From positions 1 through 13,998 of the IMG/VR virus record IMGVR_UViG_2740892233_000016: a stretch of 13,998 bases of DNA; one strand, 5' to 3'. The DNA is from a virus (taxonomy: Duplodnaviria; Heunggongvirae; Uroviricota; Caudoviricetes). Below are positions 1 to 12,047 of this stretch, in pieces; positions within the stretch are counted from its first letter, which is position 1, and each line of letters begins with the position of its first letter. The notes beneath the pieces are model-generated. The model saw nothing but the letters and a program-made list of their open reading frames with translations, ran no database searches and had not been told where the DNA came from. A program made the translations under genes and the position numbers.

Positions 1-1242
1 ATGGCGAGAAAAACACACCCATTAACCACAGTGCAGATCAAAGCAGCCAGACCAGCGCAAAAGGAGTACACCCTGCAGGACGGCGGAGGGCTTTTTCTCC
101 TGGTCAAACCGTCTGGATCAAAACTCTGGAGATTTTCCTACTACCGACCATCGGACAAAAAAAGAATATTGCTGAGTTTTGGATCGCTTGAAGATGTTTC
201 CCTGGCTGATGCCAGAAAACGCCGTAGCGAGTACAGGACGTTAATCAGTGCCGGAACTGACCCGCAGGACCACGAGAGGCAAAAAAGAGAGACAGAGGCC
301 CGAAGACAAGGGAACACGTTCGAAAATGTGGCGGCGGCATGGTACCAGGTGAAAATCAGCCAGAATCTGGCCCCCAACACGATTAAAGACATCTGGCGTT
401 CGCTGGATAAATATGTATTCCCGTTCATCGGCAACACGCCAATAGATACCCTCACCGCCCGAAGGTTCGTTGAAGTGCTTACCCCCATCAAGGAGCGCGG
501 CAACCTGGAAACACTCAAGCGGGTTTTACAGCGCGTTAATGAGGTAATGGATTACGCCGCCAACAGTGGGCTGATTGATGCCAATCCGGCTATGAATGTG
601 CGTAAGGCGTTTCCCTCACCTGTAAAAAAACATATGCCAACAATCCGCCCCGAACAGCTGCCCGAGCTTATGCAGGCTTTATCAGTATCGGCAACAGAAC
701 GGCAGACCAGATTACTGATTGAATGGCAGTTACTGACCGTAACCCGTCCCGCCGAAGCGTCATCAACGCGGTGGGATGAAATCAACCTGGACGCGAAGCA
801 ATGGACGATACCTGCCGGACGCATGAAGATGCGCAGGGATCACGTTATCCCGCTTTCCGGTCAGGCTATGGCGGTGCTGGAGGCCATGAAACCAATCAGC
901 CACCACCGCAATTACGTTTTCCCAAGTCTGAAAGACCCACAGCAGCCGATGAACAGCCAGACAGCTAACGCAGCATTGCGGCGTATGGGATTCGCTGGCG
1001 TGCTGGTGTCTCATGGATTACGCGCCATATTCAGCACAGCAGCGAACGAGGAAGGATTCGAGCCGGACGTAATAGAGGCGGCACTTGCCCACGTCGACAC
1101 CAACGAAGTTAGACGGGCATACAACCGGAGCAACTACATAGAAAAACGCATCGTGCTGATGCGCTGGTGGGGCGAATTTGTCGAGGCTGCGGCGACGGGC
1201 GTAACCCTCGCCAGTGGTAAAAGGGGTATCCGAGCCGTGTAG
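1..1242 (+). CDS. int: Tyrosine integrase, P4-like family
   Basis: 413 aa; N-terminus ...LQDGGGLFLLVKPSGSKLWRFSYY... typical of P4-type integrase arm-binding domain; C-terminal catalytic region with ...HGLRAIFSTAA... and ...AHVDTNEVRRAYNRSNY... (catalytic Tyr region). Stop TAG at 1240..1242. Confidence 0.93.
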   Translation: MARKTHPLTTVQIKAARPAQKEYTLQDGGGLFLLVKPSGSKLWRFSYYRPSDKKRILLSFGSLEDVSLADARKRRSEYRTLISAGTDPQDHERQKRETEARRQGNTFENVAAAWYQVKISQNLAPNTIKDIWRSLDKYVFPFIGNTPIDTLTARRFVEVLTPIKERGNLETLKRVLQRVNEVMDYAANSGLIDANPAMNVRKAFPSPVKKHMPTIRPEQLPELMQALSVSATERQTRLLIEWQLLTVTRPAEASSTRWDEINLDAKQWTIPAGRMKMRRDHVIPLSGQAMAVLEAMKPISHHRNYVFPSLKDPQQPMNSQTANAALRRMGFAGVLVSHGLRAIFSTAANEEGFEPDVIEAALAHVDTNEVRRAYNRSNYIEKRIVLMRWWGEFVEAAATGVTLASGKRGIRAV

Positions 1243-1945: not shown

Positions 1946-2093
1946 CGGGTATCACAGATATGACAAACACGAAAAAAGCGGCCCCGATATGGAGCCGCCT
2001 TTCTGAACAATTAACCCGCTGCGCCTTATGTGTATGTGATCCCAAACATAAGCACGGGGATGATAGCCGCTATCAGGCTGGTGGGCAATGCAA

Positions 2094-2282
2094 TCAGTCT
2101 GGTTCAGTTCGTTGCCATACCTGCAATGAGCGCTTTTCCCTGTACTCTTTAAGGAATTGCTCAAGGGCAAAAGCACATGGCGCGAATCTTTCTGATTCAT
2201 GCTCTATCTTTCTGCGCCGTCTTTTCCGTGCCGGTGATAATGTTTTGGTCAATTCTTTATCGGTCATTGTGTTGTCCTGCAT
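2094..2282 (-). CDS. Hypothetical small basic protein (62 aa; alternative start at 2267 gives 57 aa with AGGA RBS)
   Basis: Minus-strand ORF downstream of Arc-like gene 1; contains RKRRRRK basic stretch; antisense frame on + strand is open (typical of real coding DNA). Confidence 0.4.
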   Translation of the reverse strand: MQDNTMTDKELTKTLSPARKRRRRKIEHESERFAPCAFALEQFLKEYREKRSLQVWQRTEPD

Positions 2283-2324
2283 AGCAATGCGCCGTAATAC
2301 CTCACACCACGGCGCTGATAGTTT

Positions 2325-2498
2325 TTATCCTTTGGGTTCTATGCCGCGTTGCTGTAATTCTTTGCGGAGAACGCGTTTAATCCAAGTGGCTAAAGATGTG
2401 TCGCCATCGGCCTTAGCTGCTTCTTCTAGCTGCGCTCTGAAGTCTTCCGGTAATCGCATTTGGTATGGAGGCGAACGTTTTTCTAATGGTGTTGACAT
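2325..2498 (-). CDS. Arc-like ribbon-helix-helix repressor (57 aa), module 1
   Basis: Not in the ORF track (<60 aa). Translation MSTPLEKRSPPYQMRLPEDFRAQLEEAAKADGDTSLATWIKRVLRKELQQRGIEPKG has the RHH pattern (beta strand ..MRLPEDF.. then two helices). RBS GAAGGG 8 nt upstream; start codon overlaps the divergent promoter/operator. Confidence 0.7.
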   Translation of the reverse strand: MSTPLEKRSPPYQMRLPEDFRAQLEEAAKADGDTSLATWIKRVLRKELQQRGIEPKG

Positions 2499-2538
2499 GG
2501 TAATTACCCTTCATTACTATACCTACATGGTAATTACC
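2492..2538 (+). promoter_or_regulatory. Rightward sigma70-like promoter (TTGACA-N17-TACTAT) with two copies of palindromic operator GGTAATTACC
   Basis: TTGACA 2492..2497, TACTAT 2515..2520; 14-mer ACATGGTAATTACC at 2495..2508 and 2525..2538 (palindrome cores 2499..2508 and 2529..2538, exactly 30 bp apart), overlapping spacer and +1. Confidence 0.55.
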
Positions 2539-2628
2539 ATTGTACTTGCCATTACACAAAAATCAACGCCCCGCAGTGCTGGGAACACATACGGGGCGTC
2601 TAACCAACAACGTAAACTAGGAGCCGTT

Positions 2629-3189
2629 ATGGTTGCCGTAAATCATATACCACACCTTGTACACACACAAACGGCCTTTGTGTGGCGTTTTCTGGCCCTG
2701 AATATCGGAGAAAAAAACCAGTTGATCGCCAGTGTCGAAAATAGCTATGATTCCCGCGCACCTCATAAAACGGGTGCCGGGATTGGCGTCCTGGGCAAAA
2801 CTGAAGCGCATAACACGCGCCCCGCGTGTTTTTTTGTGCCGCATAGTCACACCTTATCAATGGTGGGCTGTACGGGGGCGGAGCAATCCGCGCCGGTTTC
2901 TTCAGTGTCCGGTTACGCCAACCCTGTACAGTCCGCCACCAGCGAAATTGGCGTTTCCGGTGGCGGTTATCTTAACCACACTGAGGAGGCTGCCAACATG
3001 GCTACTATCCCTACCCTTGTACATTCTCAAACCGCCTTTCTCTGGCGCTTTATCATCTTTGGCGCGTCAGAACATCAAATCATCCACGTAACCGCCTGGA
3101 CGGAACGCGAAGCGCGTAGCCGTTGCCCGTCCGGTTGTGTTGCTGTATTCGCCGCCCGTATTCGTCAGGAGGTGTGCCATGTGCAATAA
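2629..3189 (+). CDS. Early-operon protein with internal tandem repeat of a small domain ending ...FAARIRQEVCHVQ (possibly Icd-like family; unverified)
   Basis: 186 aa from ATG 2629 with strong RBS AGGAG (2619..2623); two internal copies of motif ...LVH(T/S)QTAF(V/L)WRF(L/I)... ; the ORF-track 409-aa ORF is an upstream run-through of this frame. Confidence 0.6.
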   Translation: MVAVNHIPHLVHTQTAFVWRFLALNIGEKNQLIASVENSYDSRAPHKTGAGIGVLGKTEAHNTRPACFFVPHSHTLSMVGCTGAEQSAPVSSVSGYANPVQSATSEIGVSGGGYLNHTEEAANMATIPTLVHSQTAFLWRFIIFGASEHQIIHVTAWTEREARSRCPSGCVAVFAARIRQEVCHVQ

Positions 3190-3400
3190 AACCACACCGG
3201 ACGCAGCAGCCGCCGCGCTCACTACGCTGATGCACGCGCTTATCGATATTGAATGCACTGCAGAGCTTGCGCAGGGAGAAGAACAGAAAGACCGGACACA
3301 GTTCGCCCTGGAATGTATCCGATACATCGCAACGCGGTCGCTGAATGACGCTAAAAATATTCTTGTTGCTGATTGTGAAAATGGGGGGGGTTATGCGTGA
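3179..3400 (+). CDS. Hypothetical protein, N-terminal half of module-1 gene 2 (split relative to module-2 homolog)
   Basis: ATG 3179 overlaps stop of upstream gene (ATGTGCAATAA), RBS AGGAGG; homolog of N-terminal half of 4481..4945; terminated just after a G8 tract (3383..3390). Confidence 0.5.
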   Translation: MCNKTTPDAAAAALTTLMHALIDIECTAELAQGEEQKDRTQFALECIRYIATRSLNDAKNILVADCENGGGYA

Positions 3401-3614
3401 TGATCGTTTTAATTCCCTGAAACAAGAATTTTCCGGCGTTCCTGATGATGCGGCTGATGCGCTTTCGTCAATATCTGAAATTATGCGGGTGGCTTTTTTC
3501 TTTCTTTGCACTGATGAGCACAGAGATACAGGGCTAAATATTCTTGATATTGCCGCTAACTATGCTGATTTCGTGACAGAAGCTGTTTTAAGAAAAACAA
3601 CGGACGGGGATTAA
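3393..3614 (+). CDS. Hypothetical protein, C-terminal half of module-1 gene 2 (MRDDRFNSLKQEFSGVPDD...)
   Basis: Starts at ATG 3393 with the G8 tract acting as Shine-Dalgarno; near-identical at nucleotide level to 4713..4800 of the module-2 fused gene. Confidence 0.5.
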   Translation: MRDDRFNSLKQEFSGVPDDAADALSSISEIMRVAFFFLCTDEHRDTGLNILDIAANYADFVTEAVLRKTTDGD

Positions 3615-3615
3615 T

Positions 3616-3849
3616 ATGCGTGATATTTACCACGAAACAATAGACCGCGCATTTAGTGCCCTTGCTTACGCTGAAGGTATGTACGAAATATTGCGCATAT
3701 GGCTTGAAACACTTGGCGACAATGAACGCGACAAACAAAAATCAAGAATTGCCACGGCATTAATAACGCTTCTTGATCCTGTAATAATGGAACTGCAAGA
3801 AATAGATCTATTGCACGACAGATATAACGAACAGCACACCGGAGAATAA
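3616..3849 (+). CDS. Hypothetical protein (77 aa), module 1
   Basis: MRDIYHETIDRAF...; paralog of 4938..5171 (about 85 percent aa identity); start overlaps the preceding stop (TAATATG). Confidence 0.6.
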   Translation: MRDIYHETIDRAFSALAYAEGMYEILRIWLETLGDNERDKQKSRIATALITLLDPVIMELQEIDLLHDRYNEQHTGE

Positions 3850-3873
3850 AAATAATGAAACTTAAATATTCTG

Positions 3874-3883
3874 NNNNNNNNNN
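3874..3883. other. Run of 10 N (gap or masked bases) at junction between module 1 and module 2
   Basis: Directly seen; truncates a gene start MKLKYS... (ATG 3855) that is the paralog of 5177..5476. Confidence 0.9.
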
Positions 3884-3905
3884 TACACCACGGCGCTGAT
3901 GGTGA

Positions 3906-4085
3906 TTACTCTGGTTCTTTGGCCTTGCGCCGCTGGCGATATTCAACTTCTCGTTTTAATGCTGCAGTAACAAATTGCCCCGTACTTTCGCCAGGCATTT
4001 TTACCGCCTCAACATTGTTCATAACTTCATGCGGAACCCTTGCCGCAACGGTTTGTGATTTTGCGTTTACTGCTTTTGTCGCCAT
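3906..4085 (-). CDS. Arc-like ribbon-helix-helix repressor (59 aa), module 2
   Basis: Not in the ORF track (<60 aa). Translation MATKAVNAKSQTVAARVPHEVMNNVEAVKMPGESTGQFVTAALKREVEYRQRRKAKEPE; RBS GAGGGG 8 nt upstream; divergent from the module-2 promoter. Confidence 0.65.
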   Translation of the reverse strand: MATKAVNAKSQTVAARVPHEVMNNVEAVKMPGESTGQFVTAALKREVEYRQRRKAKEPE

Positions 4086-4187: not shown

Positions 4188-4284
4188 CTTGTTGGCGCAA
4201 GGTGCAGAAACGACGAAACCCGGCAGTGCGCTAACACTAACCGGGCTTCTAACCACCAACGATAGCGAAAGTATCGAGGTAGCT

Positions 4285-4491
4285 ATGAGAAATCATACCA
4301 CACACCCGCAAGGGCGGGACTCGCACAACCTGAATAAATACATCTGGCGTTTTATCGCCCTGAGCACGGCACAACCGCGCGTGATTACCATTGAGGCCAC
4401 CAGCGAACAGGAAGCACGCCAGCAATCTCCGGCTGGCTGCGTGATGGTATTCGCTGCCCGTATTCGTCAGGAGGTGTGCCATGTGCAATAA
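4285..4491 (+). CDS. Small protein ending ...FAARIRQEVCHVQ (single-domain paralog of 2629..3189; possibly Icd-like)
   Basis: 68 aa from ATG 4285 (RBS GAGG); C-terminal 25 aa nearly identical to C-terminus of 2629..3189; the ORF-track 190-aa ORF is an upstream run-through crossing the promoter. Confidence 0.55.
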   Translation: MRNHTTHPQGRDSHNLNKYIWRFIALSTAQPRVITIEATSEQEARQQSPAGCVMVFAARIRQEVCHVQ

Positions 4492-4945
4492 CATCCGTCC
4501 GGACGCAGCCGCCGAAGCCATCATAACGCTAATGCACGCGCTGATTGATATTTCTGTTATCGCAGACATGGCGCATAAGCACGCCACCAGTGAAACAGAA
4601 TATGCCGGGGCTTTCGTTCCTCATTCGCTGGCGGTTATGCAACTTAGTGCGGATATGGCGCTGAATGAGGCCAAAGCCATCCTGATTGCTGATTGTGAAA
4701 ATGGGGGGGTTATGCGTGATGATCGTTTTAATTCCCTGAAACAGGAATTTTCCGGCGTTCCTGATGATGCGGCTGATGCGCTTTCGTCAATGCCAGAACT
4801 TATTAGAGCGGCTTTTTTCTTACTTTCCACGAGAGAATATAAATCAACGGGGCTTGATGTACTGAATATCGCCGCCGATTATGCGGAATATGTGGCAGAG
4901 GCGCGTTATAGAAGAAAATTTCCTGAGGATGTAAGCCATGCGTGA
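4481..4945 (+). CDS. Hypothetical protein (154 aa), module-2 gene 2 (fused form)
   Basis: ATG overlapping upstream stop, RBS AGGAGG; reads through a G7 tract (4703..4709) where module 1 has G8. Confidence 0.6.
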   Translation: MCNNIRPDAAAEAIITLMHALIDISVIADMAHKHATSETEYAGAFVPHSLAVMQLSADMALNEAKAILIADCENGGVMRDDRFNSLKQEFSGVPDDAADALSSMPELIRAAFFLLSTREYKSTGLDVLNIAADYAEYVAEARYRRKFPEDVSHA

Positions 4946-5171
4946 TATTTACCACCAAACAATAGACCGCGCATTTCTTGCACTTTCTCACAGTGAAAAC
5001 ATGCTGGAAATATTGCGCATATGGCTTGAAACACTTGGCGACAATGAACGCGACAAACAAAAATCAAGAATTGTCACGGCATTAATAACGCTTCTTGAGC
5101 CTGTAATAAATGAGTTGCAGGAAATAGAGACATTGCACGACAGATATAACGAACAGCACACCGGAGAATAA
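4938..5171 (+). CDS. Hypothetical protein (77 aa), module 2
   Basis: MRDIYHQTIDRAF...; overlapping start/stop with the upstream gene. Confidence 0.6.
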   Translation: MRDIYHQTIDRAFLALSHSENMLEILRIWLETLGDNERDKQKSRIVTALITLLEPVINELQEIETLHDRYNEQHTGE

Positions 5172-5176
5172 AAATA

Positions 5177-5476
5177 ATGAAACTTAAATATTCTGGCTTA
5201 ACTGCCAGTGGCAACACTCACCCTAAATTTACGCGCGGTGATATTTACCGCGACCAGTACGGCGGCACGGTAATGATTAAGGGCGTGGCGGGACGGTGCG
5301 TAACTTACCGCCGTGAAGGTTACGAATATGATTGCGTGATGCCTGTTTATCAGTTCCGGCGTGATTTTTCTCTGGTACAGACCGCGCCGCATAACGTGCC
5401 CACCAGCAACGCCAGGGCACGGGCAAACATCCAGAAGCTGAAAACCATGATTAACGGATTCAGGGGCAAGAAATGA
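5177..5476 (+). CDS. Hypothetical protein (99 aa), translationally coupled to the rep-like gene
   Basis: Stop overlaps the rep start (ATGA at 5473..5476); the first 6 codons are duplicated at 3855..3873. Confidence 0.55.
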   Translation: MKLKYSGLTASGNTHPKFTRGDIYRDQYGGTVMIKGVAGRCVTYRREGYEYDCVMPVYQFRRDFSLVQTAPHNVPTSNARARANIQKLKTMINGFRGKK

Positions 5477-6873
5477 AAAGCGCACCGAACTTAAAAAAAC
5501 AGCCTTACGACAAGATGACCGAAGTCATTATTTTTGCGGGTAGTGATGCCTGGGCACATGCGAAACAGTGGCAGGAACAGGACGGGCGACTGGCTGGCGA
5601 TAATGTGCCTCCCGTTGTGCTGGCTGATGATCAACTGGATGAACTGGCAGACCTGAGAATCATCGACGAGGGGCGCTATTGTGTCCGGCTGTACAAGGCA
5701 GGCCACATCAGGCCATCAAATATTAATGCCATTGCGCACAAGCTGGCGGCGGCGGGTGTAACTGATGCGAATTATTACCCCGAAGGGATGCACAGCCATA
5801 TGCGGGAGAACTGGCGCGAATACCTGGAACGGGTGCGCGGGAAAGAGCCGGCGGAAGAAAAAAACCACCAGCGAAAAACCACGCTACCGATGAGCGTTGG
5901 ATCTACCGGATACGACACGCAACTGGATTACGTGGTTAAGGGGATTATTCCGGCGGTATCGCTATGCAGCATATACGGGGCTAGCGGGTCCTATAAATCA
6001 TTCCTTGCCGGATCGTGGGCGTGCCATGTTGCCACTGGTCGCCAGTGGGGAGGCCGCAGGGTTGCACATGGTGCGGTTCTCTATGTGGTTGGTGAAGGCG
6101 GTATAGGTGTTCCGCGTCGTGTAAAAGCCTGGGAGGTTGTGCACGATGAGCAGGTGAAAAATCTGTATCTGGTAAACCGCCCCATCTTTCCGGCTGCCCC
6201 GCTTGATGTTGATGAAATGGTTATCGCTGCCCGTCAGGTGGAGCGGGAAACGGGTAAACCTGTACGCATGATTATTCTGGATACGCTGGCGCGTTGCTTT
6301 GGTGGGAATGATGAAAATGATTCCCGTGATATGGGGGCGTTTATCCGTGGTTGTGACGAACTGAAACGACGCACAGGGGCCACGGTGCTGGTGGTTCACC
6401 ATTCCGGCAAGGATGAGACGAAAGGCGCGCGCGGTTCCAGTGCATTTCGTGCTTCGCTGGATGCTGAATACCGGATACGCAGGGAGGACGCAGGAAGCGA
6501 AGCGCTGGTTATCTCATGCACCAAAATGAAGGACGCGGAGGAACTCAAAGAAGCCGCATATGACTTACGCGTGGTGGAGCTTTTTACCGACGCTGACGGT
6601 GAATTAATCACGTCGCTGGTGGTGGTGGATGATCCGCGCCCTCCTGTTGAACTGGAGCGCATCGAGGAGGCAGGGAACAAGACGGAAAACCATACCGCGC
6701 TATGGGGGTGCATCCGTTCACGCACACAGAACGGCGACAAGTGCACGATCCCGCTGTTACGTGATGACATGAAAAAGCTGGGGTATGAAATGAAAAACTT
6801 CCGGCGCTGGCTGTACAAGCTGGAAAAAGATGGGGTTATTCGTATCGATGGGGATGATGTAGCGCCGCTATAA
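5473..6873 (+). CDS. RepA-like AAA ATPase / replicative helicase of the satellite (AAA_25-type)
   Basis: 466 aa; Walker A-like GASGSYKS, Walker B-like ...RMIILDTLARCF..., ...VLVVHHSGKD... motif typical of RepA/DnaB-like RecA-fold helicases; iterons begin at its stop codon. Confidence 0.8.
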   Translation: MKSAPNLKKQPYDKMTEVIIFAGSDAWAHAKQWQEQDGRLAGDNVPPVVLADDQLDELADLRIIDEGRYCVRLYKAGHIRPSNINAIAHKLAAAGVTDANYYPEGMHSHMRENWREYLERVRGKEPAEEKNHQRKTTLPMSVGSTGYDTQLDYVVKGIIPAVSLCSIYGASGSYKSFLAGSWACHVATGRQWGGRRVAHGAVLYVVGEGGIGVPRRVKAWEVVHDEQVKNLYLVNRPIFPAAPLDVDEMVIAARQVERETGKPVRMIILDTLARCFGGNDENDSRDMGAFIRGCDELKRRTGATVLVVHHSGKDETKGARGSSAFRASLDAEYRIRREDAGSEALVISCTKMKDAEELKEAAYDLRVVELFTDADGELITSLVVVDDPRPPVELERIEEAGNKTENHTALWGCIRSRTQNGDKCTIPLLRDDMKKLGYEMKNFRRWLYKLEKDGVIRIDGDDVAPL

Positions 6874-7063
6874 AAGTGAGGAGCAAAAGCGAGGGGGATA
6901 GAAAGAGGGCCAAAATTAGCCCGCTCTCCCTCACTTTTCGACCTGTATACATCCTCAAAAGTGAGGGGTAAAAAAATACTTATGAAACACACACATAGAA
7001 AAACCGAAAATCCCAACTGCGACGAAGTGAGACGCTTGAAAAAGTGAGGCGAAAAAGTGAGAG
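6873..7063. repeat. Iteron array AAAGTGAG(G/A) (putative replication origin)
   Basis: Direct copies at 6873, 6958, 7042, 7055 (plus GAAGTGAGA 7024 and degenerate AAAGCGAGG 6885, AAAGAGGG 6902) and one inverted copy CCTCACTTT 6929..6937; AT-rich stretch 6968..7010 between them. Confidence 0.6.
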
Positions 7064-7073
7064 GTTGCGAGAA

Positions 7074-7293
7074 ATGACCCAAAAACGCAGAGACAGAACA
7101 GAGCCAAAATATAAAGCGTTAGACATGACTGAGCACACCTTAAAGGTGGCAATCAGAACGATAGACCGCCACACGCGGGAAGGATACGCGAAGGAACATC
7201 CCGACCTGATAAGCGCATTCATGACCACGGCGGCGGCAAACTTTGCCACGCTGACAGAACGGGAGATTGCCGAAGCGGAACAGGTAACAACCA
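7074..7293 (+). CDS. Hypothetical protein, 3' end obscured by N run
   Basis: ORF from ATG 7074 (MTQKRRDRTEPKYKALDMTEHTLK...) running into the N run at 7294..7303; true stop unknown. Confidence 0.35.
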
Positions 7294-7303
7294 NNNNNNN
7301 NNN
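7294..7303. other. Run of 10 N (gap or masked bases)
   Basis: Directly seen. Confidence 0.9.
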
Positions 7304-7319
7304 CCGGAGAGGTGGAATT

Positions 7320-7730
7320 ATGACGGCACAGATAGCCGCTTACGGGCGGCTGGTGGACGACCCGCAGGTAAAACAGACCAGCAAGGGCACACCGATGACG
7401 CTGGCGCGTATGGCGGTATCTTTGCCATGCAGCCAGGCACAGGACGGACAGGCGACGTTATGGTTATCGGTCATCGCATTTGGCAAACAGGCCGACTTCC
7501 TGGCTAAACATCAAAAAGGCGATGTTGCCAGCGTATCCGGCACGATGCAGGTAAGCCAGTGGACCGGACAGAACGGAGAAACGCGGCAGGGCTGGCAGGT
7601 TATCGCAGACAGCGTAATCAGTGCCCGCGCGGCACGTCCAGGCGGGAACAGACGCAAAACCACAGGCACACAGGGTAATCAGCCACCAGCGGGAGGCGAT
7701 GACCCTTACGGTGATGATATTTCGTTCTGA
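7320..7730 (+). CDS. ssb: Single-stranded DNA-binding protein
   Basis: 136 aa from ATG 7320 (RBS GGAGAGGTGG); OB-fold pattern aligns with E. coli SSB (..GRLVDDPQVK.. / ..WLSVIAFGKQADFLAKHQKGDVASVSG..QVSQWTGQNGETRQ..), acidic C-terminal tail ...DDPYGDDISF. Confidence 0.85.
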   Translation: MTAQIAAYGRLVDDPQVKQTSKGTPMTLARMAVSLPCSQAQDGQATLWLSVIAFGKQADFLAKHQKGDVASVSGTMQVSQWTGQNGETRQGWQVIADSVISARAARPGGNRRKTTGTQGNQPPAGGDDPYGDDISF

Positions 7731-7740
7731 GGGGGTGACG

Positions 7741-8013
7741 ATGGTACATGACCGCATAGCGGAGGAACTGGAGGCGAAAGGCTTTTACCGGAGGGCGGCG
7801 GCGCGATGGGGTGAAGTCATGCAGCTGGTGGAGACAGACAAGGAACGGCATCACATCACGATGCGACGGCTGGAATGTTCAAGGAAGGCACAGAGGGCAC
7901 CGGAGCCGCCGGATAATTTCGGAGACCTGAAAAAGGCAGTCGATCGCACTTATGCCGAAATGGGTATAGATGGTGCTGGTGATGAAATATGGCGCAATTA
8001 CCAGGACAGCTAA
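7741..8013 (+). CDS. PerC-like transcriptional regulator
   Basis: 90 aa; N-terminus MVHDRIAEELEAKGFYRRAAARW... resembles the PerC-family N-terminal signature (recalled from memory; needs HMM confirmation). Confidence 0.55.
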   Translation: MVHDRIAEELEAKGFYRRAAARWGEVMQLVETDKERHHITMRRLECSRKAQRAPEPPDNFGDLKKAVDRTYAEMGIDGAGDEIWRNYQDS

Positions 8014-8019
8014 TCAAAC

Positions 8020-8043
8020 AGCCGGAGAAATCCGGCTTTTTTT
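8020..8043 (+). terminator. Rho-independent terminator (AGCCGGA-GAAA-TCCGGCT + T7)
   Basis: Perfect 7-bp stem, GAAA loop, T-run. Confidence 0.65.
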
Positions 8044-8139: not shown

Positions 8140-8364
8140 ATGCCGATGAAATTTGATGAGATATTAAAACAGCGTGATAAATACCATGCTGACAACATGG
8201 AGACGATGAGCATCAATGATTACCGCGCATTCCTGGAGACGGGCGCACTGATTGAAAAGGATCAGCATGGTTTTGTGAGATGTGCTCTATCCGGTGAAAT
8301 GCTGGCGGTAAATCCTGAACAGATAGATGCATTGATAGAATTTCTGAAAGAGATCAGAGACTGA
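8140..8364 (+). CDS. Hypothetical protein (74 aa)
   Basis: RBS GAGG upstream of ATG; followed by two terminators. Confidence 0.5.
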   Translation: MPMKFDEILKQRDKYHADNMETMSINDYRAFLETGALIEKDQHGFVRCALSGEMLAVNPEQIDALIEFLKEIRD

Positions 8365-8383: not shown

Positions 8384-8406
8384 AGCCGGAGCAATCCGGC
8401 TTTTTT
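8384..8406 (+). terminator. Rho-independent terminator (AGCCGGA-GCAA-TCCGGCT + T6)
   Basis: Near-identical to the hairpins at 8020 and 10658. Confidence 0.65.
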
Positions 8407-8412
8407 GCGCCC

Positions 8413-8454
8413 AAAAAAAGCCCGATAAGGTCAGAGGGTTCTTATCGGGCTTTT
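8413..8454. terminator. Bidirectional terminator-like hairpin (A7 - GCCCGATAAG...CTTATCGGGC - T4)
   Basis: 10-bp perfect stem with 11-nt loop, flanked by A-run and T-run. Confidence 0.5.
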
Positions 8455-8510
8455 GCATATGAGGTTTTTGGATGCACTGGCGTTCGTGATCGGGATAATC
8501 ATTTCATAAT

Positions 8511-8580
8511 TTGCAACATAACTCAATATCATTGCATAAAATGCAATTCTGATTATAATCAGGACTGGATGAACATCCAG
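8511..8580 (+). promoter_or_regulatory. Late (morphogenesis) promoter region: TTGCAT-N16-TATAAT embedded in three perfect palindromes
   Basis: ATTGCATAAAATGCAAT (8531..8547), CTGATTATAATCAG (8549..8562, contains TATAAT), CTGGATGAACATCCAG (8565..8580); the downstream operon starts at 8616. Confidence 0.5.
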
Positions 8581-8615
8581 TTATGATTTTTTAAGTCGAA
8601 GAGGAATTTCTTACT

Positions 8616-8822
8616 ATGGCTGAAGAGAAAAAAGGCGGTGTTTCGGTGTACATAAGCCCCGACATCGTGAAGGCGCTCAAGGAACGCCACCAGCAGAACG
8701 TAAAAGCAGGCATTGCGGCAGGACTTGATCCGCTGGCGATGGTTGAGCCGTCAACAGGCTGGCAGGTCCGCGCCTATTTACGCGCGGCGCTGGGCATGAA
8801 TCAGACGCATGGAGGTGAATAA
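8616..8822 (+). CDS. Hypothetical protein (68 aa), translationally coupled to the capsid gene
   Basis: Stop TAA overlaps capsid ATG (TAATGG); RBS GAGGAA upstream. Confidence 0.5.
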   Translation: MAEEKKGGVSVYISPDIVKALKERHQQNVKAGIAAGLDPLAMVEPSTGWQVRAYLRAALGMNQTHGGE

Positions 8823-9877
8823 TGGCAGGCAAAGCAACGGCACTTAACACTAACCAGCTTTTCGCGTACCTGAATCGCGGGGATATTGCAGAATTTAAAT
8901 TCAGTCCGCTGTTTACCACGCTGTTTTTCCCGAACGTGGCGACCTTCAACACCCAGAACATCATGCTGGACACCCTGGACATTGAAGAGGTTACGATGTC
9001 AGCGTTCTGTTCGCCTATGGTGGGTAGTCAGGTCCAGCGCGATAAAGGGTACGAAACCAGCACGATTAAACCAGGCTACATGAAACCCAAACACGAAATC
9101 GATCCAACAAAAACCATCATGCGCATGGCTGGAGAAGATCCGGCACAGCTTAACGATCCTACCTATCGCCGTATGCGCCTGATTACTGGCAACATGCGCC
9201 GCCAGATAAACGCCATTAAGGCACGCGTGGAATGGCTGGCGGTGAATGCGGTAACGACCGGAAAAAACCTCATTGAGGGCGAAGGCATAGAACGCTATGA
9301 AATCGACTGGAAGATCCCGGAAAGCAATATCATAGAACAGGCTGACGGTAAAAAATGGTCTGAGCTGGATAAAGAAACACACGATCCAATCTATGACATC
9401 GAGCTTTATGCTGATCAGGGCAATTGCCCCGCAAACGTCATGATTATGGGCGCTGAAGTATGGCGCACGTTACGCAGCTTTAAAAAATTCCGCGAACTGT
9501 ACGACCTTTCCCGTGGTTCAGAATCCGCCGCAGAACTGGCCTGTAAAAACCTGGGTGAAGTGGTGAGCTTTAAAGGCTATCTGGGCGATATTGCCCTTGT
9601 CGTCTATTCCGGCAAATACACTGACAGCGACTGCACCGAAAAATATTTCCTTGAGCCTGATTTGCTGGTCCTGGGTAACACCAACAATAAAGGGCTGGTG
9701 GCCTATGGTGCGATTATGGATCAGGAAGCGGTCAGAACGGGCGCAACGCAAAACATGTTTTACCCGAAAAACTGGATTGAGGACGGCGATCCGGCGATTG
9801 AGTACGTGCAGACGCACAGCGCACCGCAGCCGGTACCGGCAGATATTCGCAAATTTGTTACCGTCAAAATTGGTTAA
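8822..9877 (+). CDS. Major capsid protein, lambda gpE-like
   Basis: 351 aa; collinear similarity to lambda gpE: FKFSPLFTTLFF vs FKFDPLFLRLFF; KPGYMKPKHEIDP vs TPGYVKPKHEVNP; EDPAQLNDPTYRRMRLI vs EDPQNLADPAYRRRRII; SFKGYLGDIALVVYSGKY vs SYKGMYGDVAIVVYSGQY; FYPKNWIEDGDPAIEY..HSAP vs RYPKNWVTTGDPAREF..QSAP. Confidence 0.9.
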   Translation: MAGKATALNTNQLFAYLNRGDIAEFKFSPLFTTLFFPNVATFNTQNIMLDTLDIEEVTMSAFCSPMVGSQVQRDKGYETSTIKPGYMKPKHEIDPTKTIMRMAGEDPAQLNDPTYRRMRLITGNMRRQINAIKARVEWLAVNAVTTGKNLIEGEGIERYEIDWKIPESNIIEQADGKKWSELDKETHDPIYDIELYADQGNCPANVMIMGAEVWRTLRSFKKFRELYDLSRGSESAAELACKNLGEVVSFKGYLGDIALVVYSGKYTDSDCTEKYFLEPDLLVLGNTNNKGLVAYGAIMDQEAVRTGATQNMFYPKNWIEDGDPAIEYVQTHSAPQPVPADIRKFVTVKIG

Positions 9878-9889
9878 CGGGGGGATTCT

Positions 9890-10225
9890 ATGGACACTCC
9901 ATACATTGAGTTATTTGCAGGTAGTCAGCAGGTATCCACGACGCTGGTACATTTTGCTGCTGATGCTGGCGTTATTCAGGAATTTACCCCGCTGATGCTG
10001 GCGGAAAATGGCGAGTTTAAGCCGTGGGATGGTCAGGAATCTGGCAAGGCTGTTTATCTGACCTCGTACCCCGTGGACACGTCGACGCAGAAATCAGCAC
10101 AGTGCTACAAGACGGGGATATTCAATATTGCCGCCGTTAACTGGCCTGAGAGCGCCGACACCGACGCGAAAAAATGCGCCGCCTTTGCGGGTTCTGGCGT
10201 ATCCGTTCAGCCGCTGGCGCGATAA
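9890..10225 (+). CDS. Head decoration protein, lambda gpD-like
   Basis: 111 aa; TPLMLAENGEFKPWDG... and ...CYKTGIFNIAAVNWPESADTDAKKCAAFAGSGVSVQ parallel lambda gpD TPLMLDTSSRKLVAWDG... and ...[36 protein letters not shown]. Confidence 0.85.
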   Translation: MDTPYIELFAGSQQVSTTLVHFAADAGVIQEFTPLMLAENGEFKPWDGQESGKAVYLTSYPVDTSTQKSAQCYKTGIFNIAAVNWPESADTDAKKCAAFAGSGVSVQPLAR

Positions 10226-10237
10226 GCAGGGGGAACG

Positions 10238-10651
10238 ATGGCAACGAATGAAAGTATCATGACGCTACCGCTGGCGAGTAAATTTAAAGCCGAAGCGCGG
10301 GCAATGGCTGACAGAGGTTTATCAACCTACGAGGCCGTATATCAACTTAACAGCCTGGAAGAGAAGGACAAGCCGCGCGCTGATGCGATTATGGCGCTTC
10401 ATGAATCTGACGACTATCAGCCGCTGTTACGTGCAATGGCAAACGTGCCTTGTATTGATGTTGATACGGCTAAAAACATCCTGAACATGACCATAGAGCA
10501 GGAACGCCCGAAGGTTGCACCAGAGCTTACCGCAGCCTTTGAAAACTTTATGGACATGCACAGCCCACAAGCCGTATCAGCTGGCATGGCATACGATGGC
10601 AGAAACCCGGGCGATGACGGCGACATCGATCGCATACTGAAAACCATCTGA
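10238..10651 (+). CDS. Hypothetical protein (137 aa) in the capsid module
   Basis: RBS GGGGGAACG; follows gpD-like gene; ends at a terminator; no recognised family. Confidence 0.55.
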   Translation: MATNESIMTLPLASKFKAEARAMADRGLSTYEAVYQLNSLEEKDKPRADAIMALHESDDYQPLLRAMANVPCIDVDTAKNILNMTIEQERPKVAPELTAAFENFMDMHSPQAVSAGMAYDGRNPGDDGDIDRILKTI

Positions 10652-10657
10652 GACAAG

Positions 10658-10679
10658 GCCGGAGAAATCCGGCTTTTTT
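10658..10679 (+). terminator. Rho-independent terminator (GCCGGA-GAAA-TCCGGC + T6)
   Basis: Third copy of the same hairpin sequence. Confidence 0.65.
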
Positions 10680-10703
10680 GCGGGTCCTTTCCGGCATATG
10701 GAC

Positions 10704-10745
10704 CTGTTACGGGGCGGAGACCTCGCGGATTTTCGCTATTTATGA
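10704..10745 (+). other. cos site 1 (lambda-type cosN, variant cohesive-end sequence GGGCGGAGACCT at 10712..10723)
   Basis: CTGTTACG-GGGCGGAGACCT-CGCGGATTTTCGCTATTTATGA matches the lambda cos junction GTTACG-GGGCGGCGACCT-CGCGGGTTTTCGCTATTTATGA with 2 mismatches; lies about 145 bp upstream of the Nu1-like gene, as in lambda. Confidence 0.7.
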
Positions 10746-10818
10746 GCCTTTTCAGGGGGGTGGTGGTGGTTTTGTTGTTTGATCTATCTTTATGAATGAA
10801 AAGGGAAAGATGCAAGCA

Positions 10819-10854
10819 ATACACCAACCTGAAGCAGTAATTAAGTTGGTGTAT
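10819..10854. repeat. Perfect 10-bp inverted repeat ATACACCAAC-N16-GTTGGTGTAT abutting the Nu1-like start codon
   Basis: Directly seen; right arm ends 2 nt before the ATG at 10857. Confidence 0.6.
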
Positions 10855-10856
10855 TA

Positions 10857-11399
10857 ATGAAATCTCATCTGATGAACAAAAAAAACATGGCGAAAAGCTG
10901 CCGTGTAAGTGCGACAGCGTTCGACAAGTGGGGAGTAACTCCCGTTGAGCGTAAAGGCCGTGAGGCGTTTTATGATGTTGCCAGCGTGATAGAAAATAGG
11001 GTTAACAATGCAATTAGCCAGCTTATAAACGACAAAGGCGAGATTGACGATGATGAACTTTTACGAGTCAGGATCAGATTACTGACAGCACAGGCAGAGG
11101 CGCAGGAACTTAAAAACGATCGCGATCGCGGTGACGTGATTGATACTGAGTTTTGCCTGTACGCGCTTTCAAAGCTGGCGAGTCAGATTTCATCAATCAT
11201 GGACATCCTCCCGCTTACTATGCAAAGGAGCTTCCCACAGATTACCCCCGCCATGCTGGACAGGCTTAAAAGGGAAGTGGTTAAAGCCTGTAATGCCAGT
11301 GCCAGAGTTGCCGACAACCTCCCACAGATACTGGCTGATTACTTGAAAGAAACAACCGGAAACGTACCGGAAAAGTTGCTACAGAAGAAAGGCGAGTAA
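10857..11399 (+). CDS. Terminase small subunit homolog, lambda Nu1-like (possible packaging-redirection factor)
   Basis: 180 aa vs lambda Nu1 181 aa; LTAQAEAQELKNDRDRGDVIDTEFCLYALSKLASQISSIMDILPLTMQRSFPQ vs lambda LTRAQADAQELKNARDSAEVVETAFCTFVLSRIAGEIASILDGLPLSVQRRFPE; N-terminal DNA-binding region is similar but more diverged. True start may be the second ATG (10872). Confidence 0.85.
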   Translation: MKSHLMNKKNMAKSCRVSATAFDKWGVTPVERKGREAFYDVASVIENRVNNAISQLINDKGEIDDDELLRVRIRLLTAQAEAQELKNDRDRGDVIDTEFCLYALSKLASQISSIMDILPLTMQRSFPQITPAMLDRLKREVVKACNASARVADNLPQILADYLKETTGNVPEKLLQKKGE

Positions 11400-11573: not shown

Positions 11574-11596
11574 CCGCGAGGTCGCCGCCCCGTAAC
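11574..11596 (-). other. cos site 2 (exact lambda cosN including cohesive-end sequence GGGCGGCGACCT, minus orientation)
   Basis: + strand CCGCGAGGTCGCCGCCCCGTAAC is the exact reverse complement of lambda GTTACGGGGCGGCGACCTCGCGG; adjacent reverse-strand sequence TTTATGAGAATTTTCCGG matches lambda TTTATGAAAATTTTCCGG. Confidence 0.65.
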
Positions 11597-12024: not shown

Positions 12025-12047
12025 AAACTACGAAATTTTCGTAGTTT
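12025..12047. repeat. Perfect 23-bp palindrome AAACTACGAAA-T-TTTCGTAGTTT near right junction
   Basis: Directly seen; 11-bp perfect arms. Confidence 0.6.

Follow-up and report, generated by a model that had tools for sequence, protein, structure and literature searches.

At the entrance of the capsid operon of a Gram-negative phage satellite, a promoter sequence is tiled by three different inverted repeats, which raises the question of what kind of signals these repeats are and how the late genes of such an island are controlled. In the literature searched, the timing of the capsid/packaging module of Gram-negative PICIs, including Rpp, is not described, and the Gram-negative PICI papers searched cover only the autoactivation of the early promoter by AlpA.

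The island and its late operon

The window, i.e., the whole stretch of DNA analysed (13,998 nt), is a Gram-negative PICI of the EcCICFT073/OI-51 type, an E. coli phage satellite. Islands of this type are about 10-15 kb long, are inserted in the chromosome and comprise co-oriented genes for an integrase, an AlpA-type regulator and a primase/replicase, then a packaging module with Rpp, the protein redirecting helper packaging. In the window, Pfam and PHROGs matches identify an integrase, an AlpA-like protein, Ash, a RepA-like helicase, SSB and PerC, followed by capsid, decoration protein and Rpp; the assignment is based on these matches, the gene order, an RgdR gene (5177-5476) and cosN-like sites at 10712 and 11579, on either side of rpp. 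The gene order is that of the annotated CFT073 island beside phoQ, in which the late-operon genes are likewise annotated. A cos site in the control region itself was ruled out, the cosN-like sequences flanking rpp instead. This control region is 91.5% identical to its CFT073 equivalent and is found in 602 of 5,426 complete E. coli genomes (~11%); among the INPHARED phages, none carries a similar region. As the first-pass annotation stated, it stands upstream of the capsid operon, the features of which are as follows:

8616-11399, plus strand: late operon, encoding a 68-aa protein, capsid, decoration protein, a 137-aa protein and a Nu1/TerS-like Rpp (Pfam, PHROGs)
8599-8618, plus strand: start of the first late-operon gene, with Shine-Dalgarno AAGAGGA at 8599-8605 and ATG at 8616
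8616-8822, plus strand: 68-aa ORF (phrog_3255), first gene of the operon
8822-9877, plus strand: lambda-E-like capsid gene (Pfam/PHROGs matches)
9890-10225, plus strand: D-like decoration gene (Pfam/PHROGs matches)
Between the decoration and Rpp genes in the operon order, plus strand: 137-aa protein (phrog_1999; PHROGs/Pfam)

The Shine-Dalgarno/ATG region (8599-8618) contains a block, AGTC.AAGAGGAAT, that is invariant among relatives. The 68-aa protein was considered as a ribbon-helix-helix autoregulator and discarded, no match to the RHH fold or family being found.

Sequence sample and comparative analyses

Relatives were collected via IMG/VR, metagenome patterns and exact-protein look-ups; scans of genome collections gave no matches for either the 68-aa protein or the capsid alignment. 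Four clades were compared, namely (i) the main E. coli clade, with 59 unique variants from 194 related loci, (ii) the L003-like clade, (iii) Salmonella, and (iv) Pluralibacter. RNA folding of single sequences was applied to 46 variants, and the chance test looked, in any 60-bp span, for three perfect inverted repeats that do not overlap and whose arms reach 7 bp or more. Conservation delimits a block at 8497-8615, next to a variable spacer at 8456-8496. A search of Rfam with 8400-8650 gave no family match, even at E <=1.

Three inverted repeats and a conserved, predicted promoter

The three repeats of the window, none of which is assigned to a strand, are the following:

8531-8547: P1 (palindrome 1), ATTGCAT-AAA-ATGCAAT, with 7-bp arms and a 3-bp spacer
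8549-8562: P2 (palindrome 2), CTGATTATAATCAG, a perfect 14-bp palindrome with TATAAT inside at 8554-8559
8565-8580: P3 (palindrome 3), CTGGATG-AA-CATCCAG, the arms extending to 8 bp at 8564-8581

All three are present in the sequence; P1, with its 3-bp spacer, is an inverted repeat and not a strict palindrome. A cluster of three such repeats appeared in none of 300 first-order Markov simulations of the window and in none of 5,000 simulations with the local composition of 34% GC, and even two such repeats within 60 bp have a simulated P of 0.0006. That the symmetry would be incidental to an A/T-rich promoter region devoid of special function is hardly credible: a promoter-like match on its own is common and TATAAT is nearly self-complementary, but the simulations, the block-wise conservation set against the variable spacer and the compensatory changes described below all speak against it.

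Among the 59 main-clade variants, P1 is perfect in 11, P2 in 36 and P3 in 49, and all three are perfect together in only three; the perfect triple symmetry is a peculiarity of this variant. Conservation of the three perfect palindromes in homologous islands, on which the first-pass annotation had staked its own reading, is thus not what is found, and Salmonella is devoid of the left arm of P2 just as the L003 clade is devoid of P3. By way of caution, what looks in one sequence like a striking run of perfect palindromes can be a mixed promoter/operator/terminator region in an unusually symmetric version.

As regards the promoter, the plus strand reads a -35 TTGCAT (8532-8537), a 16-nt spacer and a -10 TATAAT (8554-8559). 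Its description as near-consensus is right for the positions, the spacer and the -10, which agrees with TATAAT at 6/6 positions, including A2 and T6, but too generous for the -35, which agrees with TTGACA at only 3/6 positions, TTG being kept, at a spacing within the usual 16-18 bp. The consensus promoter scanner made no call on TTGCAT-N16-TATAAT, the -35 lying under its threshold, and a match to TTGC-N18-TATAAT with at most one mismatch arises in 144 of 200 shuffles, so the promoter is backed by conservation and position, not by rarity. TTGC is kept in 59/59 and TATAAT in 58/59 main-clade variants, and the TTGC-N18-TATAAT layout is kept at fixed spacing in the four clades, reading TTGCAA-N16-TAAAAT in the L003-like clade and having TATAAT as -10 in Salmonella and Pluralibacter. 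The conserved form of the -35 is TTGC plus two variable bases (TTGCAT, TTGCAC, TTGCGC, TTGCTC, or TTGCGT). On these grounds the promoter assignment holds, and we infer a sigma-70 promoter, from which transcription is predicted to start near 8566-8567. Two other candidates, namely TTCATA-N18-TATCAT, called by the scanner, as an upstream promoter, and TAAAAT (8537-8542) as an alternative -10, were rejected, both falling on the least conserved positions.

Tandem predicted terminators and the T3 hairpin

Between the early-side genes and the late operon, three terminator-like elements were recognised:

8384-8407, plus strand: T1, AGCCGGA-GCAA-TCCGGCT then TTTTTT, ending the early-side gene 8140-8364
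8413-8454, no strand assigned: T2, an A7 run, a stem formed by GCCCGATAAG (8420-8429) and CTTATCGGGC (8441-8450) with an 11-nt loop, and TTTT
8557-8592, plus strand: T3, 5' arm AATCAGGACTGGAT (8557-8570), loop GAAC (8571-8574), 3' arm ATCCAGTTATGATT (8575-8588), and T-run (8587-8592)

In the terminator scan the stem of T1 has 7 pairs, 5 of them G-C, and CFT073, Salmonella and Pluralibacter all keep this element. T2, a putative terminator as read from the sequence, is bidirectional in form and has equivalents in relatives. Of note, with two good terminators already standing upstream, a third may seem redundant as an insulator.

T3 is where the repeats take on another meaning. P3 is the top of its stem, the right arm of P2 doubles as its base, and its 5' arm begins inside the -10; the suggestion of a structured leader thus came nearer the truth for P3, which together with the right arm of P2 makes a 14-bp RNA hairpin adjoining a T-run. 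The terminator scan calls T3 with 8 pairs in the window and 14 pairs in CFT073, and the 14-bp stem with its 4-nt loop reaches -13.8 kcal/mol in the window and -17.7 kcal/mol in CFT073. In 43 of the 46 variants folded, the structure of lowest energy is the full hairpin (-11 to -22 kcal/mol). Downstream, T6 occupies 8587-8592, and a run of T5-7 adjoins the stem in 59/59 main-clade variants, a hairpin adjoining a T-run being also kept in Salmonella and Pluralibacter. The length of the loop is fixed, its sequence is not (GAAC, AAAC, GTTC, GTAC, AAAT, or GTTT). The L003 clade has a weak hairpin only, of about -4 kcal/mol.

The pairing itself is maintained through compensatory changes and G·U intermediates at three pairs in the main clade, namely (i) 8560:8585 (C-G 53, U-A 3), (ii) 8562:8583 (U-A 28, C-G 3, G-C 2, U-G 3, mismatched 23, including the window itself with G·A), and (iii) 8563:8582 (A-U 50, G-U 8, G-C 1). 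The stem is 96% paired as aligned vs. 23-40% with the partners slid. RNAalifold alone does not recover the lower stem and prefers a small P2 hairpin plus the mid-stem (-5.4 kcal/mol). With a stable stem-loop, an adjacent U-run and an evolutionarily kept pairing, T3 is a predicted intrinsic (Rho-independent) terminator overlapping the promoter.

These data bear directly on the view, taken in the first-pass annotation, that the repeats are operators for two or three dimeric proteins sitting over the -35, the -10 and +1. The extreme clustering favours this view, as do the outer pair of P2, with A-T in 27 variants out of 59 and C-G in another 13, and the arms of P1 and P3, whose conservation around a spacer varying at fixed length would fit protein sites too. 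Against it stand the three fully symmetric variants out of 59, the change from C-G to U-A (T-A in DNA) at 8560:8585, which keeps the T3 stem and breaks the P2 dyad, the covariation of the outer P2 base 8562 with 8583, the tolerance of G·U-type intermediates, and the T-run, which remains adjacent to the stem throughout the clades, including those with a shifted hairpin. Losses in other clades (P2 left arm in Salmonella, P3 in L003) and the failure of the motifs to recur elsewhere in the island also weigh against it, so we regard three such operators as unlikely; as stated, the step from three palindromes to more than one dimeric regulator finds no support.

P2 is the least clear-cut of the three. 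Its core, TGATTATAATCA, is 93-100% conserved in the main clade, including the left arm TGAT (8550-8553); its outer pair is mismatched in the 19 variants having neither A-T nor C-G, and its left arm is lost in Salmonella (GTGGTTTATAATCAG). P2 might largely be a side effect of a near-symmetric -10 that is joined to the base of a stem; the evidence is ambiguous, the left arm being conserved too. A symmetric -10 carrying TATAAT on both strands, and giving rise to a leftward transcript ending at T2, would explain that conservation: TGATTATAATCA does read TATAAT on either strand, TGGATG-N16-TATAAT on the minus strand scores 9/12, which equals the forward promoter, and T2 is flanked in three genera by an A7 and a T4 run, the better U-run being on the minus strand. 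Yet conservation in the region is lowest across 8456-8496, from which such an RNA would be transcribed, no conserved minus-strand ORF or Rfam family is found there, and the symmetry is lost in Salmonella; a leftward promoter is highly unlikely.

Two candidate operators

The remaining repeat, P1, is better described as one of two related elements, neither of which is assigned to a strand:

8500-8516: O1, CATTTCATAATTTGCAA, with the core TTTCA-N5-TGCAA at 8502-8516, its centre near -58 from the predicted start
8531-8547: O2 (= P1), with the conserved core TTGCA-N5-TGCAA at 8532-8546, overlapping the -35

A dimeric regulator over the -35, as first proposed, is plausible for P1, but in a reduced form, as P1 is conserved solely as the 5-bp half-sites TTKCA-N5-TGMAA, and the second copy 30 bp upstream had been missed. 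In the main clade the outer five pairs of O2 are 92-100% conserved; the inner two pairs are not and show no compensation, 8537:8541 pairing in just 25% of the variants. The half-sites of O2 are kept in the four clades and the N5 spacer varies. O1 is almost invariant in the 59 main-clade variants and agrees at 14/17 positions with 8530-8546, which lies 30 bp further on (local P about 0.03), this 17-mer occurring in the window solely at 8500 and 8530. Within the window alone, the significance of the direct repeat is marginal. The 30-bp offset and the half-site layout recur in Pluralibacter, Salmonella and the L003 clade; the copies of O1 and O2 agree at 13/15 positions in Pluralibacter, where both have another spacer, TTAAA, and at just 7/15 in Salmonella, where a copy reads TTTCA-TATTA-TGAAA.

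A single candidate dimeric regulator could bind both O1 and O2 and thereby set promoter activity, the 30-bp spacing corresponding to about three helical turns and placing the two sites on the same helix face. Repression would be the likelier mode, because the -10 is consensus. No link to the sites emerged for any of the regulators first named (AlpA, PerC, or an island repressor): P1, P2 and P3 have no further occurrence within the window, no motif shared with the alpA promoter or with the rest of the island was found, and the promoter is unchanged in islands without a PerC gene in the upstream stretch examined. Other candidates were set aside, namely RgdR, whose published DNA binding is weak and non-specific, and the Fur box, IHF, CRP, FNR and sigma-54 patterns, which do not fit on a by-eye check. 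The O2 core was also sought in other phages, where all 110 non-family matches lie in unrelated contexts without the island architecture.

Proposed organisation of the control region

We hold with moderate confidence that the late-operon control region is a superimposition of a promoter, two operators and T3, and that the tandem terminators T1-T3 insulate the late operon. On this reading, the three repeats are three different kinds of signal, and not three matching protein sites. In the arrangement proposed, T1, T2 and T3 would stand in tandem and separate the late operon from the early/replication genes; a polymerase arriving from upstream would transcribe the entire T3 hairpin and stop, and a polymerase starting at the late promoter would produce an RNA deprived of the full 5' arm of T3 and read into the capsid genes. 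The promoter's own transcripts would escape T3 because its 5' arm begins inside the -10: an RNA starting after the -10 retains a 5-bp stem of -3.9 kcal/mol in the window (range to -6.3), standing 5-6 nt from the U-run. Both the start site of the promoter and the termination at T3 are predictions.

The question of late control is thereby narrowed to about 100 bp and four elements, i.e., O1, O2, the -10 and the T3 stem, all of them kept in E. coli, Salmonella and Pluralibacter; a regulator is predicted as well. PICI late promoters drive the payloads of engineered "antibacterial drone" or diagnostic islands, for which knowledge of a terminator overlapping the -10 would be of practical use.

Antitermination as an alternative

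A different use of the same parts would be Q-like antitermination, whereby the late promoter is constitutive, its transcripts stop at T3, and a helper or island factor bound at O2 and the spacer lets the polymerase read through. Such cassettes are known as lambda PR'-QBE-SDPE-tR' and P. aeruginosa PalpB-ABE-tB (PMC9388147, PMC9371919). The island shares with them a sigma-70 promoter, a conserved element between the -35 and the -10, a close downstream intrinsic terminator and phage-type late genes, and a -10-like TATGAT (8582-8587) lies within the transcribed region. Helpers of this island family are lambdoid, and Q is the one late regulator known for them. The Pluralibacter hairpin is located, together with its T-run, 15 bp further downstream, so that a complete 8-bp hairpin with its U-run, at about +9 to +33, lies wholly within the predicted own transcript; for this arrangement attenuation fits better than insulation.

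The E. coli and Salmonella islands differ in that the predicted start (8566-8567 in the window) lies inside the 5' arm of T3, so that their own transcripts would be without a functional terminator; a terminator downstream of the start, as in the Q cassettes, is predicted in Pluralibacter alone, and the covarying lower-stem positions 8560, 8562 and 8563 are upstream of the start. No convincing pause element was recognised at +1 to +10: GAACAT (+5 to +10) and TATGAT (+16 to +21) are weak candidates and, because both belong to the hairpin, their conservation is uninformative. The island proteins scanned with Pfam gave no Q-family match, nor was the O2 core found in phage control regions. As to the binding element, ATTGCATAAAAT and the lambda PR' spacer ATTGAATAAAAT agree at 11/12 positions, but the lambda QBE is a 13-bp asymmetric site contacted at positions 1-4 and 11-13, and the resemblance, noticed after the fact, falls mostly in its A/T-rich, uncontacted middle; the majority of island variants read ATTGCACAAAAT and do not have the match. 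Mimicry of the lambda QBE was therefore rejected as an explanation of its own, and the match, which is real, is retained solely as a part of the improbable antitermination alternative. The island element is a symmetric repeat in two copies, unlike the asymmetric lambda QBE and the tandem QBE of phage 21.

A constitutive promoter gated at T3 is, on balance, improbable, and it is quite unlikely that the late operon of this widespread satellite family is switched on by antitermination, with helper Q or an island Q-like factor acting at O2/spacer through T3. In favour of antitermination are the Pluralibacter terminator, which is wholly in the transcript, and the 11/12 match to the lambda PR' spacer. 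If true, the satellite would imitate its lambdoid helpers in using a PR'-tR' logic for the timing of capsid and Rpp synthesis.

Comparison with known control regions

Returning to the superimposed promoter, operators and terminator, its junction can be compared with other tandem or overlapping terminator-promoter junctions at the boundaries of operons, such as that of frd and ampC, where the E. coli frd terminator acts within the ampC leader, downstream of the ampC start, and attenuates ampC. Both are single short DNA stretches which end (in the island, as predicted) upstream transcription and launch or modulate the downstream unit; in the island, by contrast, the start is predicted within the stem, so that the terminator would act on the incoming polymerase alone. 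Among satellites, operon I of the SaPIs, the packaging operon of these Gram-positive PICIs, is reportedly repressed by LexA (Ubeda 2007, cited in PMC6739421). The island resembles it in having a dedicated, separately controlled promoter for the satellite capsid/packaging module, and differs in sequence, regulator and organism; no LexA box (CTGT-N8-ACAG) is visible by eye in the control region. The late promoters Psid and PLL of P4 have a TGT-N12-ACA dyad near -55, through which Delta/Ogr activates them. Like the island promoter, they are preceded by a conserved site, at about -55 to -60, but the island promoter has no TGT-N12-ACA, the scanned island proteins include nothing Delta/Ogr-like, and the helpers are lambdoid, not P2-like.

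At the level of the sites, CytR operators take the form of TGCAA-N2-3-TTGCA, TTGCAA, or the octamers AATGCAAC/GTTGCATT, and the pentamers are flanked, within about 5 nt, by CRP sites, which are needed for repression (PMC3454398). O1 and O2 share with them the pentamers TTGCA and TGCAA as well as TTGCAA, and AATGCAAT (8540-8547) matches the octamer at 7/8 positions. In the island, however, the half-sites have the opposite relative orientation (TTGCA...TGCAA) and stand 5 bp apart, and no TGTGA-N6-TCACA-like CRP site is visible by eye in 8470-8560; the orientation, the spacer and the absent CRP sites argue against CytR as the binder, the likeness being one of resemblance only. Taken as a whole, the control region is built from known parts.

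Genetic organisation of the island

The window is a phage-inducible chromosomal island (PICI) of the EcCICFT073/OI-51 (CP-933C, Sp7) type, located next to phoQ.

Genes of the island, with their positions in the window
1-1242: integrase
1739-1945: AlpA-like protein
1960-3189: Ash-family gene
5177-5476: RgdR/DUF4222
5473-6873: RepA-like AAA_25 helicase
After the helicase gene: SSB and PerC, the latter ending at 8013
8140-8364: 74-aa phrog_1957 protein
8616-8822: 68-aa protein (phrog_3255), first gene of the late operon
8822-9877: lambda-E-like capsid protein
9890-10225: D-like decoration protein
Same operon, between the decoration and Rpp genes: 137-aa protein
10857-11399: Nu1/TerS-like Rpp protein, last listed gene of the operon

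The 276-bp region around the late promoter, i.e., that of the capsid operon, is found in 602 of 5,426 complete E. coli genomes, the CFT073 copy being 91.5% identical. In the PICI literature searched, which covers AlpA autoactivation, Rpp and cos, control of the capsid/Rpp operon is not described. The 68-aa gene accompanies this control region without exception in E. coli, Salmonella and Pluralibacter.

Elsewhere in the island, the Ash-family ORF (1960-3189) holds plus-strand Rfam matches that are strong for isrK (2758-2834, 66 bits) and C4 antisense RNA (2856-2943, 77.6 bits) and weak for the c4-a1b1 target (2745-2797); together, 2745-2943 looks like an antisense-RNA immunity module of P1/P7/P4 type inside the Ash/Bro gene. 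Two paralogous gene blocks (3137-3849 and 4481-5171), with near-identical 77-aa proteins (3616-3849 and 4938-5171) preceded by ORFs having long segments in common, suggest a tandem duplication in the early region. A weak SymR-like match (4212-4284, minus strand; 33 bits against a gathering score of 61) is probably due to chance. Short runs of undetermined bases around 3880 and 7300 translate as XXXX in the ORFs at 3653-3946 (minus strand) and 7044-7730 (plus strand); the second run directly precedes the SSB domain. Two cosN-like sequences, one with a single mismatch (GGGCGGAGACCT, 10712-10723, plus strand) and one perfect (GGGCGGCGACCT, 11579-11590, minus strand), flank the Rpp gene and are probably the pair of cos sites described in EcCICFT073. 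The longest palindrome of the window (AAACTACGAAATTTTCGTAGTTT, 12025-12047; 23 bp, near-perfect, 11-bp arms) is situated between phoQ and the last ORF of the island; it may act as a terminator or belong to the attachment-site region.

Inverted repeats and late promoter

Relatives were collected from (i) four E. coli genomes, (ii) 80 IMG/VR loci found via the capsid protein, (iii) IMG/VR searched with a DNA pattern of the conserved block, (iv) metagenomes searched with a degenerate pattern from four clades, (v) exact-protein look-ups, yielding one island each from Pluralibacter gergoviae and Salmonella, and (vi) a divergent, L003-like E. coli clade. The main clade of E. coli relatives comprised 59 distinct ungapped variants out of 194 loci, in which 8497-8615 is conserved block-wise and 8456-8496 is variable. 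The three inverted repeats reported in the first-pass annotation can all be read from the sequence.

P1, 8531-8547: ATTGCAT-AAA-ATGCAAT
P2, 8549-8562: CTGATTATAATCAG, including TATAAT (8554-8559)
P3, 8565-8580: CTGGATG-AA-CATCCAG

Their clustering is real and non-random, three such repeats within 60 bp occurring in none of 300 whole-window and none of 5,000 local-composition simulations. Palindrome conservation in homologous islands, set beforehand as the refutation test, is another matter: P1 is perfect in 11 of the 59 variants, P2 in 36 and P3 in 49, and no more than 3 variants combine all of them, so that the window is an unusually symmetric variant of this region.

The proposed promoter, TTGCAT-N16-TATAAT, is accepted, with a predicted start near 8566-8567, although "near-consensus" overstated it (TTGCAT matches TTGACA at 3/6 positions). 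TTGC is present in 59/59 and TATAAT in 58/59 main-clade variants at constant spacer length, and the counterparts are TTGCAA-N16-TAAAAT in the L003-like clade, TTGCGA-N16-TATAAT in Salmonella and TTGCAT-N16-TATAAT in Pluralibacter. The promoter scanner made no call on it, and comparable TTGC...TATAAT patterns are common by chance. Both the scanner's TTCATA-N18-TATCAT promoter and an alternative -10 at 8537-8542 were rejected, as they fall on the least conserved positions.

A predicted terminator overlapping the promoter

P3 and the right arm of P2 are likely to form an intrinsic terminator, T3 (predicted stem 8557-8570/8575-8588, T-run 8587-8592). In CFT073-type islands, P3 extends to AATCATAACTGGAT-GAAC-ATCCAGTTATGATT followed by TTTT, a 14-pair stem called as a terminator by the scanner; in the window, where it contains one G·U pair and one G·A mismatch, its folding energy is -13.8 kcal/mol. 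Pairing in the stem reaches 96% over the variants, versus 23-40% with partners slid. Position 8563:8582 is A-U in 50 variants, G·U in 8 and G-C in 1, and 8562:8583 is U-A in 28, C-G in 3, G-C in 2, U·G in 3 and mismatched in 23. At 8560:8585, C-G (53 variants) is replaced by U-A in 3, which keeps the T3 stem and breaks the P2 DNA dyad; the outer P2 base therefore has two partners. This change, together with the scarcity of variants perfect at all repeats, makes it unlikely that all three are DNA operators, as first suggested. The loop varies (GAAC, AAAC, GTTC, GTAC, AAAT, GTTT) at constant length, and what had been read as the seventh P3 pair belongs to it. A T-run of 5-7 adjoins the stem in 59/59 main-clade variants; the arrangement is kept in Salmonella, and in Pluralibacter the hairpin is shifted by 15 bp with the T-run still adjoining. 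Unguided RNAalifold returned only a short P2 hairpin and the middle of the T3 stem, and the L003-like hairpin is weak.

Two further predicted terminators, conserved in all clades, lie just upstream of the late promoter.

T1, 8384-8407
T2, 8413-8454

The U-run of T2 is better on the minus strand (A7 on plus) than on the plus strand (T4), likewise in Salmonella and Pluralibacter, and to the right of T2 there is no evident gene on the minus strand. A symmetric -10 firing in both directions might account for this U-run and for the P2 left arm, but its predicted RNA would span the least conserved stretch, and we regard it as very improbable; that arm includes a conserved TGAT (8550-8553). Near-identical hairpins at 8020-8037 and 8384-8401, AGCCGGAG(A/C)AATCCGGCT then a T-run, follow the PerC gene and the small gene after it, which suggests that these accessory genes are interchangeable cassettes, each delimited by this terminator. 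The 74-aa gene is absent from CFT073, and in some islands the upstream stretch examined contains no PerC gene.

A putative operator pair

P1 is conserved at its five outer pairs only; its innermost positions pair in 25% of the variants, and no compensating changes occur at inner pairs among the 59. An invariant upstream block, CATTTCATAATTTGCAA (8500-8516), is identical at 14/17 positions to CATTGCATAAAATGCAA (8530-8546), at an offset of exactly 30 bp (local P ~0.03), and the 17-bp motif has no further occurrence in the window. The two TTKCA-N5-TGMAA copies are designated O1 (8502-8516) and O2 (8532-8546), the latter being the P1 core and overlapping the -35. The 30-bp offset recurs in Salmonella, with TTTCA-TATTA-TGAAA (a perfect inverted repeat) and TTGCG-ATAAG-TGCAA, and in Pluralibacter, where TTTCATTAAATGCAA and TTGCATTAAATGCAA have a common spacer, unlike that of E. 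coli. Sites for dimeric DNA-binding proteins usually look like this, with conserved 5-bp half-sites separated by one helical turn, a spacer that is free in sequence but fixed in length, and two copies at a distance of three turns. Whether O1 and O2 are indeed sites of a dimeric regulator is, on these patterns, an even call. The original interpretation would thus hold for the promoter and a dimeric site at P1, with P3 and the P2 right arm acting instead as a terminator.

The O1/O2 motif is not shared with the alpA promoter. Among candidate binders, PerC could not be tied to the sites, islands lacking its gene in the upstream stretch examined having the same promoter region, and RgdR was rejected because published work reports only weak, non-specific DNA binding. 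The 68-aa protein was considered as a ribbon-helix-helix binder; it had no match in family or fold searches, and the idea found no support from family, sequence or fold. CytR operators have similar pentamers, but their relative orientation is opposite and CRP sites are absent here, and CytR was likewise rejected.

Proposed control of the late operon and comparison with known systems

The 5' arm of T3 starts within the -10 hexamer. As such, polymerase arriving from the early genes would produce RNA with the whole hairpin beside the U-run, while RNA begun at the late promoter would be left with no more than a stem of 5-6 bp (-3.9 to -6.3 kcal/mol), at 5-6 nt from the U-run. Best supported for that reason, at roughly even odds of being right, is a triple insulation by T1, T2 and T3 against early transcription; expression of the late genes would rely on the operon's own promoter plus a putative factor at O1 and O2. 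That late-promoter transcripts would escape T3 is held more tentatively, at slightly less than an even chance, because the start site is predicted rather than mapped.

Alternatively, the late operon could be controlled at the terminator, as in the lambda PR'-QBE-tR' cassette of Q antitermination. The general layout is the same, the Pluralibacter arrangement favours it and 11/12 positions match the lambda PR' spacer. Four points speak against it and leave it unlikely: where this match falls relative to the contacts of the Q binding element (QBE), where the start is predicted in E. coli and Salmonella, that no pause element is clearly recognisable, and that phage control regions do not contain the O2 core. 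No description of the arrangement in this control region, or of its role in a satellite late operon, was found in the literature searched; its components are all of known kinds, namely a promoter, an operator pair and an intrinsic terminator, and the question of what switches on PICI capsid and Rpp expression is narrowed to a few precise experiments.
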